Assembly (NCBI RefSeq): GCF_041986965.1
Contig: NZ_JBHIXB010000002.1
Span: 547,501 to 611,500, forward strand
Direction of reading: 5' to 3'
DNA from: Hyphococcus sp.
GTDB taxonomy: Bacteria; Pseudomonadota; Alphaproteobacteria; Caulobacterales; Parvularculaceae
Length of the DNA: 64,000 nucleotides
The position numbers were made by a program, and so were the translations under genes. Below, piece after piece: positions 59,633-63,528 of this stretch (the first letter of the stretch is position 1; every line of letters begins with the position of its first letter). The notes under the pieces are model-generated. The model was not told where the DNA came from, searched no databases, and saw only the letters and a program-made list of their open reading frames with translations.

Positions 59633-60307
59633 TTATTGTTGCGAAACTGTTTCCGGAAATTTGAAATCTCCCATGGGCGGAAATTGCTGGCGGTCGAACG
59701 CCCACTCCTTGAAGGGGCCGTCAAGATCGACCCAATGCAAAAAGAGATGCGCGGACCAGCGGTTCGGATTGGGGATCGTGCGGCCGTGGCGATAATTACA
59801 TCCCTGATAGAGAATCGCGTCGCCCGGATTGAGCATGACTTCTTTTGACGACTCATCGCCAAAATCATCCGCCTTTTGTAACTCACAGGCGTCTTCAAAC
59901 TCATAGCGCCGTTCGCCAATTTCAAACGGCCAGACAATATCGTCGCAATAGCCAAGCGGCATGGAGAGCGAATGCTCACAAGATTCGCGATCCGAATGCA
60001 CCGTGCAGACATCGCCCTTCTGGTAGACGCGGAAAAACGCGTAGCTCGGCGCGAGACGCTTGCCCGTCAGATCGACCATTCTGGAGGTCAAACCCCAGTG
60101 CAGCCCCATGGTCGTGTGATGGCGGTAGCTGTAATACTCATAGGCCGGCTTGGCGTTGACCCGCGGCGCCGACATATAGGCGTCCGGCCGCTGATTGAGC
60201 TGCGCGCAGACGATAGCCAGGAAGTGCTGCACCATCGGGGCCGGCGCAACGCCCGGAACCACGGCGTAACCGTTTGATTCGTAGGATGTTCTGAAATCTT
60301 CGCTCAT
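59633..60307 (-). CDS. Putative 2OG-Fe(II) oxygenase
   Basis: PSYAFFRVY, HSDRESCE (HxD), PGDAILYQG, HGR and LFLHW. Start likely 60307. Confidence 0.6.
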   Translation of the reverse strand: MSEDFRTSYESNGYAVVPGVAPAPMVQHFLAIVCAQLNQRPDAYMSAPRVNAKPAYEYYSYRHHTTMGLHWGLTSRMVDLTGKRLAPSYAFFRVYQKGDVCTVHSDRESCEHSLSMPLGYCDDIVWPFEIGERRYEFEDACELQKADDFGDESSKEVMLNPGDAILYQGCNYRHGRTIPNPNRWSAHLFLHWVDLDGPFKEWAFDRQQFPPMGDFKFPETVSQQ

Positions 60308-60441
60308 GGGGCTAAATTCCCCCATCGCCGCGGCGGGGTCAATCGCGACCAAACGCCCCTGAGAAGCGATAAACCGAGCTGTGCCGCCCCCGCGGCGGCT
60401 GCGACACTGGTCGTCAGGGATGAAATTTCAAAGGACCGGAC

Positions 60442-61719
60442 ATGAAAAAATTCATCAGTGCCCTTGCGGCTGCGGCTTTTGTGGGGGCGCCGGTCCTGGC
60501 GCCCGCCTCAGCCGAAAACGGTCTTTCCGGCTATCGCGCTGGAATGGAGCGCGCCGCGGCGGCGTTTGAGGCGGAAGACTGGCCAGCCCTCGACACCGCG
60601 CTGGAGGACGCCCAGGCGGCGGCCCCCGGCTCTTTATATGTCTACCGCAACCGGATCCTTTCCCGGATGCTGACCGGGCGGCCCGGCGAAGCGCTCGCCC
60701 TCGCCGCCGCCGCCGCCAGGCGCGGATTGACGCTGAACCTGTCTGGCCACCCGGCCTTTGAGGCGCTCACCGCCATGCCGGATTTCGTTCCCGTCGCCGC
60801 GCAGATGGAGGCCAATGCAGCTTCGCTTGGCGCCCCATCGCAGACGAGAGAGTTCGAGGACACCGGCCTCCTGCCCGAAGCCATCGCCTATGACGGCAAG
60901 AACAAACTCTACATCGGATCGGTGCGCACTGGTGCGATCCTGAAAGCGAAACAAATGGATGAAGCGTTGACGCTAATCTCCCAAGCATCCGGCGGTGTTT
61001 TCGATCTTGAAGTGCGCAACGGAACCCTTTGGGCGGCCGTCAACAATCAGCTCGCTTATGAAAAGACCGGAGAAGAAGACGCCTTCGCCGCTGTCATGGC
61101 GTTTAATGCAAAAACGGGCGCCCCCATCCGCGAAATCCGGGTGACGCAGGAAGACGCCATGCTGGGCGATCTTGAAGTCGCCAAAGACGGAACCGTTTAC
61201 GCCAGCGATTCCATTACGCCGCGCCTCTTTCGCATGGCGCCGGACGGCCAAACGCTTGAGATTTTTTCCGCTGATCCGAGATTTGCAAATCCCCAAGGGA
61301 TCGCGCTCGATGAAAAAGCAGGCAAGCTCTATATGGCCGATTACCTCGCCGGGCTTTTCGTTATTGACGTTGAAACCGGCGAAGCGACGCTGTTGACAAA
61401 TGAGGCGGACGCCTGGCTGGGCGGGATTGACGGGCTGTATCTCTATGAGGACGGCCTCATCGGCATTCAAAACGGTTCGACCCCGCAGCGCGTTGTCTAT
61501 ATCGGCCTCAATGACGACAAGACCGCCATCACCAGCTTTGTCACCATGCATCGCAGCCTCGCAGGCTGGAATGAACCGACCCACGGCGCTGTCATCGGCA
61601 AGGACTTCCACTATATCGCCACGTCCAACTGGCCATCCTATAATGACGATGGGACGGTGAAGGATAAACCGGCGCTTCAGCCTCTCCGCATCATGACCTT
61701 GCCGCTTGAATCGAAGTAG
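60442..61719 (+). CDS. Exported SMP-30/gluconolactonase-like beta-propeller with N-terminal helical domain
   Basis: Signal peptide; repeated blades PEAIAYD, NPQGIALD and GIDGL. Confidence 0.65.
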   Translation: MKKFISALAAAAFVGAPVLAPASAENGLSGYRAGMERAAAAFEAEDWPALDTALEDAQAAAPGSLYVYRNRILSRMLTGRPGEALALAAAAARRGLTLNLSGHPAFEALTAMPDFVPVAAQMEANAASLGAPSQTREFEDTGLLPEAIAYDGKNKLYIGSVRTGAILKAKQMDEALTLISQASGGVFDLEVRNGTLWAAVNNQLAYEKTGEEDAFAAVMAFNAKTGAPIREIRVTQEDAMLGDLEVAKDGTVYASDSITPRLFRMAPDGQTLEIFSADPRFANPQGIALDEKAGKLYMADYLAGLFVIDVETGEATLLTNEADAWLGGIDGLYLYEDGLIGIQNGSTPQRVVYIGLNDDKTAITSFVTMHRSLAGWNEPTHGAVIGKDFHYIATSNWPSYNDDGTVKDKPALQPLRIMTLPLESK

Positions 61720-61748: not shown

Positions 61749-62576
61749 GTGACCGCCATATCCGCAGGAAAGATAAAAGCCGTTCTGGCGCCGGATCTGG
61801 GCGGCGCCGTCATGTCGCTGTCTTTTGAGGGCAAGAACATCTTTCGTCCGGCCAGCTCACGCGACGCTGTCGCCGTCGACCCGCGCGAAGCGGCCTGTTA
61901 CCCTTGCGTCCCCTGGTTTAGCCGGCTTTTCGGCGGCCTCGATTTCGGCGGGCGGCATTACGAGCTGGCGCCGACCTTGCCCGCCTGCGATCCCGATCAC
62001 GCGCTTCATGGGCATGGCTGGGTCAATCCCTGGACGATAACGGATCAACGCGAAGACCATCTCACCTGCCGTTTCGATCATGCGCCCGCGCCCGGTCTGT
62101 TTCCCTTTCGTTTTTTCGCGACGCAGGAATTTTCCGTCTCGCAAGACGCCTTTCAGATCGTTTTGTCGCTTACCAACGATAGCAGCGCCGGCATGCCCGC
62201 CGGGCTGGGGCTTCACCCCTTCTTTCCCAACACAAAAACAACCGAGCTCAATTTCACGGAATATTTTGGCCAGCCAAAGCTTCCTTCAGCCCTGACGCCA
62301 CCGGAAAAAATCGACCACCGCGGACCGGTGACCGATGATCCTGTCGACTACACCGTCAAGCGCTGGGACGGAACGGCTGAAATCGTTCATGACGGCATGA
62401 AGATAGCCATGCGCAGCAACGCCCGTATCCTTCACCTCTATTCGCCGGAAGACGCCGATTTCTATTGCGCCGAACCGGTCAGCCATTGGCCCGGCCATTT
62501 CGGCCAGGACATCCTTGCGCCGCAGGAAACCATGGACCTTGTGCTGTCGCTGAAGATTATTAAGCAGGCAAGTTGA
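61749..62576 (+). CDS. Aldose 1-epimerase family protein
   Basis: YPCVPW, ALHGHGW, GLGLHPFF and YCAEPVSH. Confidence 0.85.
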   Translation: MTAISAGKIKAVLAPDLGGAVMSLSFEGKNIFRPASSRDAVAVDPREAACYPCVPWFSRLFGGLDFGGRHYELAPTLPACDPDHALHGHGWVNPWTITDQREDHLTCRFDHAPAPGLFPFRFFATQEFSVSQDAFQIVLSLTNDSSAGMPAGLGLHPFFPNTKTTELNFTEYFGQPKLPSALTPPEKIDHRGPVTDDPVDYTVKRWDGTAEIVHDGMKIAMRSNARILHLYSPEDADFYCAEPVSHWPGHFGQDILAPQETMDLVLSLKIIKQAS

Positions 62577-62764
62577 ACAAGGATAATCCGGATTAACCCT
62601 GTTTGCATTTGAAAAAGCTCGCTGACTGCTTTTCTTGCGGCGCAGGCGCGGCTCCAACTTTGTCGTTCAGCGCTTCAAACAGAGGCGTGAGTTAAGATTC
62701 CATACACACTTATCTGTAAAATTTGAACTTTATGAGGGAGGCCGCGTTTCCGGCCTGAGTAAGC

Positions 62765-63472
62765 ATGTGTGTACATAGTCTTTATACAGACCGTTCCGGT
62801 TCAACGGCGGTCGAATACGCCCTGATTGCCGCCCTGATTGCGGTCGCCATCTTCGCGGCGCTCGAAGTGACGGGCGAAAGCACAAAGTCAAAATTCCTCA
62901 GTGTGGAGTCCTCGCTTCTCAACGATGATGACAACGCGGGCAATGCAGGCGGCAGCAGCGGTTCCGGCGGCGGAGGCGGCTCTCCGTCCAGCAATGGCGG
63001 CGCATCCGCTGGCGGCGGAGGCGGCGGCTCGCCGTCTTCATCCGGCGGCGGTCTCGGTGGAAGCGCAGGCGCGCCATCGGCGCCCGCTGACCCGTCAAAC
63101 GGACAAGCAAATGGCCAAGGCAGCGGTCAGGGTAACGGTCAATCAGGCAATGCAGGCGCATCAGGCTCTGCCGGCGCCTCCGGGTCCGCCAGTGGCGGCG
63201 GCTCCTCTTCCGGAGGCGGCTCATCAGGCGGCGGATCGTTTTCTGTCGGCGGCGGCGTCAGCGCCCCGGGATCAGGCGCAGGCGGGACCACACCGGGGCC
63301 GACAACGCCCGCAACGCCGGCGCCCGGCGCCTCTAATCCTGTTGTTACAGATCCGGCGACTGACCCCACCGCCAATCCGGCGACGCCCGGCAATAACAAT
63401 GGAAACAGCAACGGCAATAACGGCAACAACGGAAATAAGAAAAACAAAAAGAAGAAAAAGAAGAAGAAATAA
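62765..63472 (+). CDS. flp: Flp (type IVb) prepilin with a long low-complexity C-terminal extension
   Basis: G|STAVEYALIAALIAVAI (E+5, Y+6), then about 180 aa of G/S/A-rich, P/T-rich and N-rich sequence ending in poly-K. Confidence 0.8.
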   Translation: MCVHSLYTDRSGSTAVEYALIAALIAVAIFAALEVTGESTKSKFLSVESSLLNDDDNAGNAGGSSGSGGGGGSPSSNGGASAGGGGGGSPSSSGGGLGGSAGAPSAPADPSNGQANGQGSGQGNGQSGNAGASGSAGASGSASGGGSSSGGGSSGGGSFSVGGGVSAPGSGAGGTTPGPTTPATPAPGASNPVVTDPATDPTANPATPGNNNGNSNGNNGNNGNKKNKKKKKKKK

Positions 63473-63493: not shown

Positions 63494-63528
63494 AAAAAAC
63501 GCCGGGCTCAACACCCGGCGTTTTCTTT
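63494..63528. terminator. Bidirectional terminator between flp and clpA
   Basis: AAAACGCCGGG-CTCAACA-CCCGGCGTTTT. Confidence 0.85.

Follow-up and report, generated by a model that had tools for sequence, protein, structure and literature searches.

A Flp-type prepilin with a long low-complexity tail and a lysine-rich end, encoded away from the tad locus in Hyphococcus

The 64,000-nucleotide stretch of Hyphococcus DNA analysed here (the window) corresponds to C2:547501-611500 of a 3.78-Mb, 7-contig genome (labelled G000), and carries at positions 62765-63472 of its forward strand an intact open reading frame (ORF) of 235 codons, which has no internal stops and ends in TAA at 63470-63472. We find that the predicted product, referred to below as the tailed Flp, begins with a head that is, by its sequence, a canonical Flp prepilin, and continues in frame into a tail of 183 residues; it carries the sequence features of the Flp family and breaks the size rule of that family. 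Comparison with other genomes suggests that tailed Flps form a subfamily, conserved across part of a single alphaproteobacterial genus and echoed in Microvirga and in metagenomes. As the best explanation, and a tentative one, we propose an accessory Flp-type prepilin of the Tad/Cpa (type IVc) system, which would be cleaved by CpaA and co-assembled into Tad pili, where it would display a tethered sticky tip.

The initial annotation of this gene had recognised a Flp pilin with an intact prepilin motif, and both statements are borne out. Residues 8-50 match the Pfam family Flp_Fap (PF04964) over profile positions 3-45 of 46, with 46.5 bits against a curated cut-off of 32.2 (49.8 bits in the scan of the whole genome), the cleavage motif reads RSG|STAVEY, and AlphaFold2 predicts a single helix at residues 15-52, with predicted local distance difference test (pLDDT) values of up to 90. 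The prepilin leader MCVHSLYTDRSG occupies residues 1-12 (62765..62800; all features of the gene given here lie on the + strand) and would be cut after Gly12, leaving a predicted mature protein of 223 residues (224 amino acids when counted from the cleavage Gly) that opens with the Flp pilin helix STAVEYALIAALIAVAIFAALEVTGESTKSKFLSVESSLL (residues 13-52, 62801..62920), as delimited by Pfam and AlphaFold2. In an alignment of 10 family members S11, G12, E17 and Y18 are invariant, while A15, A23, I25, A31, T36 and G37 are nearly so; the amphipathic, polar second half of the helix is conserved too, which is more than a plain membrane anchor needs. Smith-Waterman alignment places the head without gaps on residues 5-53 of the 56-amino-acid major Flp of the same genome, and residue 1 of the mature PilA of Caulobacter crescentus (PDB 8u1k) aligns to residue 13, albeit with a weak E-value. 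The onset of the tail coincides with the point at which the ordinary 56-amino-acid pilin ends, and a tail that begins there could project outward. Membership of the TadE/TadF/TadG pseudopilins (PF07811) was considered and rejected, given a match of 11.9 bits (E = 0.26), which falls below the cut-off of 22.9, and a tail without the folded C-terminal domain of ~140 residues, ending in ...TAFRNEP, that is seen in TadE-like ORFs; true TadE-like genes do exist in this genome, at three other loci, with scores of 30-58 bits.

The tail (residues 53-235) contains each of the segments that had been named at the outset. It opens with the acidic linker NDDDN (residues 53-57, 62921..62935), which is NEDDS or ADDSS in close orthologs, and continues with a Gly/Ser/Ala/Asn-rich low-complexity region (residues 58-157, 62936..63235) that is delimited by composition and has pLDDT below 50. 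A short island, SFSVGGGVSAP (residues 158-168, 63236..63268), stands out as conserved in the ortholog comparison, and is followed by a Pro/Thr/Asp-rich segment (residues 169-209, 63269..63391) in which P197 is nearly invariant and whose DP repeats recur in orthologs. An Asn/Gly repeat, NNNGNSNGNNGNNGN, comes next (residues 210-224, 63392..63436; a 9-bp tandem repeat of AACGGCAAT in 3.2 copies at the DNA level), and the protein ends in the polycationic tip KKNKKKKKKKK, with 10 Lys in 11 residues (residues 225-235, 63437..63472 including the TAA). Overall the tail comprises 57 Gly, 32 Ser, 22 Ala, 21 Asn, 16 Pro, 10 Lys, 9 Thr, 6 Asp, 4 Gln, 4 Val, 1 Leu and 1 Phe, such that 6 of its 183 residues are hydrophobic. 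Among all ORFs of this genome of at least 50 amino acids, the Lys run is the strongest, and the most Gly/Ser/Asn-rich span of 100 residues is the most extreme of any plausible gene. The AlphaFold2 model, which was built from a shallow alignment of 3 sequences, contains no structure past residue 52, with pLDDT below 50 over nearly the whole tail. A search of NCBIfam with the full protein returned no matches, and sub-threshold Pfam matches to GRP and SteA-like_C were set aside as products of composition bias. O-glycosylation of the Ser/Ala/Pro-rich tail, raised in the initial annotation, is possible but unsupported; a Pfam search of the genome for PglL_A gave no matches, but the control genomes also gave none above the cut-off, and Wzy_C-type ligases were not searched.

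Flp pilins measure 40-60 residues when mature and are described as being without a C-terminal domain (PMC10710030). Similarly, in a sample of about 80 genes from other taxa, in which loci were fetched with a generic Flp pattern that returned only ordinary Flps and TadE-like genes, all 81 of the 81 Flp-type ORFs span 32-59 amino acids from the cleavage Gly onward, and where the motif occurs in a long protein, that protein is a folded TadE-like pseudopilin. Searching more widely for Flp heads with long low-complexity tails, as had been suggested for this gene, does recover such proteins in the genus and, though rarely, outside it, in Microvirga and in metagenomes. When 1.84 billion representative proteins were searched with a profile, 4469 Flp-like matches resulted, among the best 150 of which about a dozen have Gly/Ser-rich tails; within these 150, Lys-rich ends occur in P0006 and P0010, and Cys-flanked ends in P0019, P0027 and P0066. 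These five proteins resemble the tailed Flp in their Flp head, their Gly/Ser/Thr-rich tail and their Lys-rich or Cys-loop end, and differ from it in being shorter (105-172 amino acids) and in belonging to other lineages; homology between their tails and that of the tailed Flp cannot be demonstrated because the tails are of low complexity. Other Flp heads from metagenomes are extended differently, either by a Gly/Ser tether and a second transmembrane helix (P0040, P0104) or by apparently folded domains of 100-250 residues (P0020, P0122, P0111, P0116, P0076), and Flp pilins have been listed among the secretion or anchoring modules that are fused to polymorphic (ARC) toxin domains (PMC12605009). 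A word search for long proteins that used the head alone returned 17 candidates, of which one was a match. Full-text literature searches found no description of a Flp with a disordered tail, and the name given to tailed Flps in their sources is simply 'Flp family type IVb pilin' or 'Flp pilus assembly pilin Flp'.

P0019 corresponds to WP_312887513.1 from Microvirga arabica, a protein of 172 amino acids that is annotated only under the first of these names and whose gene is likewise not next to tad genes. On JAFBID010000023.1 (6894-11322) it lies amid three genes of the SMI1_KNR4/SUKH families, to which immunity proteins typically belong, with an alginate-lyase/RTX-like gene close by; this context is unlike that seen in the genus of the window.

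The recurrence of the long frame and the way in which it changes show that the gene is real and, on this comparative evidence, under purifying selection. An identical product of 235 amino acids is encoded on 14 contigs, which include two NCBI assemblies and two Logan run assemblies, and 17 of the 50 genus genomes searched have a long open frame (140-338 amino acids) with a match that reaches past the Flp head into the tail; both observations contradict a stop near codon 55, which had been named as the result that would undo the initial annotation. Furthermore, two metagenome proteins, P0002 (187 amino acids) and P0003 (189 amino acids), share the same architecture and the same neighbouring genes. 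In DNA alignments, indel lengths are divisible by 3 in 5 of 5 cases between G000 and G010, in 9 of 9 between G010 and G020, and in 8 of 10 between G000 and G020, where the remaining two, of 4 and 1 nucleotides, look like alignment noise. Ratios of nonsynonymous to synonymous substitution (dN/dS, Nei-Gojobori) are 0.17-0.34 in the tail and 0.00-0.10 in the head, as obtained from a protein-guided alignment, which tends to depress dN. It is true that several frames are open in this G+C-rich, low-complexity DNA, with overlapping ORFs of 278, 117 and 101 amino acids, and one could imagine either a short Flp gene that a sequencing or assembly frameshift has run into non-coding low-complexity DNA, or a decaying pseudogene. 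We consider such an artefact hardly credible, however, in view of the identical product in several assemblies, of 17 species in which the frame that begins with the Flp head stays open as far as a Lys-rich or Cys-loop end, of indels in multiples of 3 and dN/dS below 0.35, and of a terminator that follows the stop codon.

Across the orthologs, the tail keeps a common order in which a G/S-rich part is followed by a P/D-rich part, an N/G-rich part and a tip. The proteins of G010, G020, G014 and G063 keep the island as GGGFS-x-GGG, and those of G006 and G058 keep part of it. Tips are of three kinds. Linear Lys runs are found in G000, G010, G020 (as NK repeats), G014, G018, G058, G063 and G046, whereas Lys-rich loops between two Cys end the proteins of G007 (CKKKKNKNKKKC), G002, G061, G006 and G042 as well as P0002 and P0003, the loop of G002, G061 and P0003 being CIKKNG-IKNNKKC and close variants of it; the third kind, a hydrophobic loop flanked by Cys, is seen in G053 (CSILPFLSAC) and G041 (CSIPVFSNFPAC). 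Cys-x9-15-Cys pairs at the tip are thus present in G007, G002, G006, G061, G042, G053, G041, P0002 and P0003, while the tail encoded in the window contains no Cys and does not end in such a loop. Paired Cys at a conserved place fit a disulfide and would thus mean that the tail is outside the cytoplasm, which is also expected from the orientation of type IV prepilins (N-terminus in, C-terminus out). The conserved design is a tether and a short tip peptide that is usually cationic. Consequently, the original description of a tether with a polycationic tip holds in so far as the protein has a long, unstructured low-complexity tail with a polycationic end, but does not extend to the family, since a poly-Lys tip is not universal among its orthologs. 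The analysis turned up nothing to connect the gene with the silica, lignin or algal polysaccharide that had been suggested as binding partners.

The tailed Flp gene is flanked by a gene of the aldose-1-epimerase family (61749-62576) and by a convergent clpA-clpS pair, and the order epimerase, tailed Flp, clpA is kept in metagenome contigs and in 12 genomes of the genus. In 9 other genomes of the genus, among them G065 and G017 as relatively close relatives of G000, there is no tailed Flp and the epimerase gene directly adjoins clpA. Carriers nevertheless span the depth of the genus, with CpaA identities to G000 that range from 99% to 73%, so that the gene would be either old in the genus and repeatedly lost, or exchanged between species.

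As had been stated at the outset, there are no tad genes nearby: neither the window nor the 10 kb that follow it contain any. A complete flp-cpaA-cpaB-cpaC-cpaD-cpaE-cpaF-tadB-tadC locus, the only one of this genome, is instead present on another contig (C1:1034080-1044766), and includes the 56-amino-acid major Flp (C1:1035608-1035775) and cpaA (C1:1035904-1036407), which encodes the sole A24 prepilin peptidase of the genome. A third Flp, an orphan of normal size, is found far from this locus at C1:1739186-1739407, as a 73-amino-acid ORF with the motif ESGATAIEY that sits between a MutT/Nudix-like gene and a gene with a ComF-like phosphoribosyltransferase domain. Clusters of TadE-like pseudopilins also lie away from the cpa/tad locus, at C1:150482-151164, C2:315856-316543 and C3:365064-366957, and one possibility is that these three clusters provide several alternative tip complexes for one machine. 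Pilin genes are hence dispersed as a rule in this genome, and the solitary position of the tailed Flp is not odd by itself. The gene cpaA is present in 48 of the 50 genus genomes, including every carrier of a tailed Flp, but we do not use this co-occurrence as support, as a gene that is nearly universal in the genus has no discriminating power.

Support for an accessory Tad prepilin comes from this complete cpa/tad machinery, which would act in trans, and from the other pilin-like genes, which are similarly dispersed. Under this proposal, the hydrophobic helix would enter the inner membrane with its N-terminus in and its C-terminus out, and CpaA would cut behind Gly12 and so remove the leader of 12 residues. 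The machine from the other contig, driven by CpaF, would then polymerise the helix together with the major Flp, with the tailed subunits probably few in number or close to the tip, leaving the tail to hang outside the 5-nm filament as a flexible line, with a contour length of ~65 nm and a coil size of ~10 nm by our own estimate. The line would present a short sticky tip, which in the window is a polycation that may suit anionic surfaces and polymers, and in other species would be a Lys-rich or hydrophobic disulfide loop.

Several points weigh against this proposal. No Tad machine with its CpaC secretin is known to pass a pilin that bears a tail of 183 residues. The gene is missing in about two thirds of the genus, near relatives included, and so is dispensable for piliation, and since tips are not uniformly cationic, binding of polyanions cannot be the function of the whole family. 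With an input of 3 sequences, low pLDDT alone is poor evidence of disorder. Moreover, expression, cleavage, incorporation into pili and function are alike inferred. A further caution comes from the capping pilin PilX of Streptococcus pneumoniae, which has a Lys-rich C-terminal tail without a detectable role in transformation (PMC12040237). PilX is similar to the tailed Flp in being a pilin with an extended Lys-rich C-terminal tail, which in the tailed Flp would likewise be located at a filament tip, but PilX is a type IV minor pilin that has a globular part, and its tail is a mixture of K and E over 37 residues, as opposed to 183 residues in the tailed Flp.

The main rival to an accessory pilin, and one that we judge rather unlikely, is a membrane-anchored periplasmic protein that never enters a filament. 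Here the Flp head, cut by CpaA or not, would be a signal-anchor, and the tail would stay in the periplasm, where peptidoglycan, anionic lipids or a part of the Tad machine are possible partners of its cationic or disulfide-loop tip, so that the protein could be a spacer, a regulator or a competitor of polymerisation. The topology and the Cys pairs would put the tail outside the cytoplasm and cannot separate the periplasm from the cell surface; moreover, the second transmembrane helix of P0040 and P0104 should block release from the membrane, which implies that Flp heads are sometimes anchors, and a gene that is dispensable in many species, together with the unproven passage of a long tail through the secretin, would also fit a periplasmic role. 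Nevertheless, the whole helix of the tailed Flp is pilin-like in its conservation and colinear with the major Flp, including the half that forms the filament surface, the cleavage motif is invariant, and the tailed Flp is without a second anchor.

Two further alternatives place the action of the tail beyond the cell surface or on DNA. That the protein is a released substrate, exported by the Tad system or shed, with a tail that acts in the matrix by, for example, cross-linking anionic exopolysaccharide or extracellular DNA, seems improbable to us: the fusions of Flp modules to toxin domains (PMC12605009) and of metagenome Flp heads to globular domains, noted above, mean that Flp heads can carry cargo, and a polycation would suit matrix cross-linking, but no cleavage site is evident between head and tail, no release mechanism is known for Tad systems, and the hydrophobic head would have to stay in a membrane or a filament. 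We give slightly less credence still to a DNA-capture pilin whose poly-Lys tip binds extracellular DNA for uptake or for anchoring in biofilms. Natural transformation of Micrococcus luteus depends on Flp pili (PMC4322843), the binding of DNA by competence pili is electrostatic (PMC12040237), and the tip examined here is composed almost entirely of Lys; however, the dispensability of the PilX tail for transformation (PMC12040237) speaks against such a role. Furthermore, the tips of G053 and G041 are hydrophobic and nearly uncharged, and no competence genes flank the tailed Flp gene.

Known filament systems provide partial parallels for the accessory pilin that we favour. Type IVa and IVb pilins carry a C-terminal, disulfide-bonded adhesive loop, the D-region, and many tailed Flp orthologs likewise end in a Cys-x9-15-Cys loop at the extreme C-terminus; this is an analogy only, given that the D-region sits on a globular pilin domain whereas the loop of the orthologs is borne on a disordered tether, and that the tip in the window is linear poly-Lys. 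Caulobacter crescentus PilA (PDB 8u1k, 8u2b) and the 56-amino-acid Flp of G000 have in common with the tailed Flp a short leader, the G/xxxxEY motif and a helix of ~40 residues, of which the first half is hydrophobic and the second polar in both, and what sets the tailed Flp apart from these two is its disordered tail of 183 residues and a gene that lies away from the tad locus. The Kil (Tad) pilus of Myxococcus xanthus contains, beside its major pilin, the Flp-type minor or adapter pilins KilK and KilO, which can be encoded away from the main machinery and are proposed to be located near the tip in low abundance (PMC12075869). Unlike the tailed Flp, KilK and KilO are fully helical (KilO has 59 amino acids) with no tail described, and they couple TadE-like tip complexes, a role that is not indicated for the tailed Flp. 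In Caulobacter crescentus, the pilin-like protein CpaL is proposed to display functional modules at Tad tips (PMC12607857), and the concept of a pilin-like N-terminus with a displayed C-terminal module is shared by CpaL, the TadE/TadF/TadG minor pilins and the tailed Flp (PMC12607857, PMC12075869). However, the heads of CpaL and the TadE/TadF/TadG proteins are of the TadE type and are joined to folded domains such as vWA, whereas the tailed Flp has a Flp head and no folded domain.

Tad/Flp pili are widespread organelles of adhesion, surface sensing and biofilm formation, and their adhesion is explained by the filament surface or by TadE-type tip complexes. A 183-residue tether whose terminal peptide varies would add a third route by which Tad pili acquire a function. 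In its broadest form, which we regard as speculative and somewhat doubtful, the idea is that tailed Flps are an unrecognised class of Tad-pilus adhesin, in which a helical filament carries disordered lines with exchangeable tip peptides. If this were true, species could retune the stickiness of their pili by swapping a dozen C-terminal residues while leaving the pilus machine untouched, and, together with Flp heads that are fused to second membrane anchors, globular domains and toxins, the view of Tad pilins as bare helices would be overturned. The class would have been hidden in existing annotation under 'Flp family type IVb pilin'. The tailed Flp would also be a natural test of the size of cargo that the Tad machine and its secretin can pass, and the idea is approachable with cysteine labelling and pilus shearing, which are already in use for Caulobacter.

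The region upstream of the gene contains several candidate regulatory elements. Just past the stop codon of the epimerase gene, TTAACCCT (62593..62600, +) matches the CtrA-type motif TTAACCAT at 7 of 8 positions, and is a candidate regulatory site. The aligned site reads TTAACCAT in G020 and G002, TTAACCAA in G001 and TTAACCAG in G061, or TTAACC(C/A)T overall, and an exact copy of TTAACCAT, which we take to be the motif recognised by CtrA, occurs within GGTTAATTCGGATTAACCAT upstream of the major flp of G000 (C1, about 1035470-1035490). Caulobacter pilA is under CtrA control, and shared CtrA or cell-cycle control of the tailed Flp and of piliation would be a testable idea. Nearer to the gene, the ortholog alignment reveals a conserved block of the form TTAA-N19-TGTAAAATTTGAAC (62692..62728, +), a candidate promoter or operator, in which the TTAA is at 62692 and TGTAAAATTTGAAC at 62715-62728, ~40 nucleotides before the start codon. 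Most of the 12 aligned orthologs keep GTAAAATTTGAA with at most 1-2 changes, while the flanks have diverged. The 14-mer TGTAAAATTTGAAC occurs once in the genome, and so does not define a regulon, and it matches no consensus that we could assign; a scan for the sigma-70 consensus upstream of the tailed Flp likewise found no promoter.

A Shine-Dalgarno-like element, GAGGGAGG (62734..62741, +), is located 23 nucleotides before the ATG, an unusually long spacing, and its AAGGGAG is kept in G020 and G001. Between this element and the ATG, the 5' untranslated region may form a hairpin, GGCCG-N6-CGGCC (62740..62755, +), for which RNAalifold predicts 6 pairs from 6 orthologs, with one compensatory change from G-C to A-U in 2 related sequences, which is weak evidence. 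Such a hairpin might bring the Shine-Dalgarno-like element nearer to the start codon, or gate translation.

Downstream, the stop codon is followed by a terminator, as first described. Folding places a bidirectional intrinsic terminator hairpin at 63496..63524, in common with the convergent clpA, with a G+C-rich stem of 11 bp and U-runs on both strands; the + strand folds with an energy of -18.4 kcal/mol (z = -3.07) and the - strand with one of -33.5 kcal/mol (z = -4.88). A scan of consensus patterns for terminators found none here, and the hairpin was seen only by direct folding.

On the far side of the epimerase gene, the window contains at 59633-60352 (-) a conserved neighbour that encodes a protein of 224-239 amino acids without any Pfam match. 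Between the two, at 60442-61719 (+), lies a gene for a protein of 425 amino acids with a signal-peptide-like N-terminus and only a faint match to DUF6923; in most of the genomes of the genus that were compared, this gene accompanies the epimerase gene.

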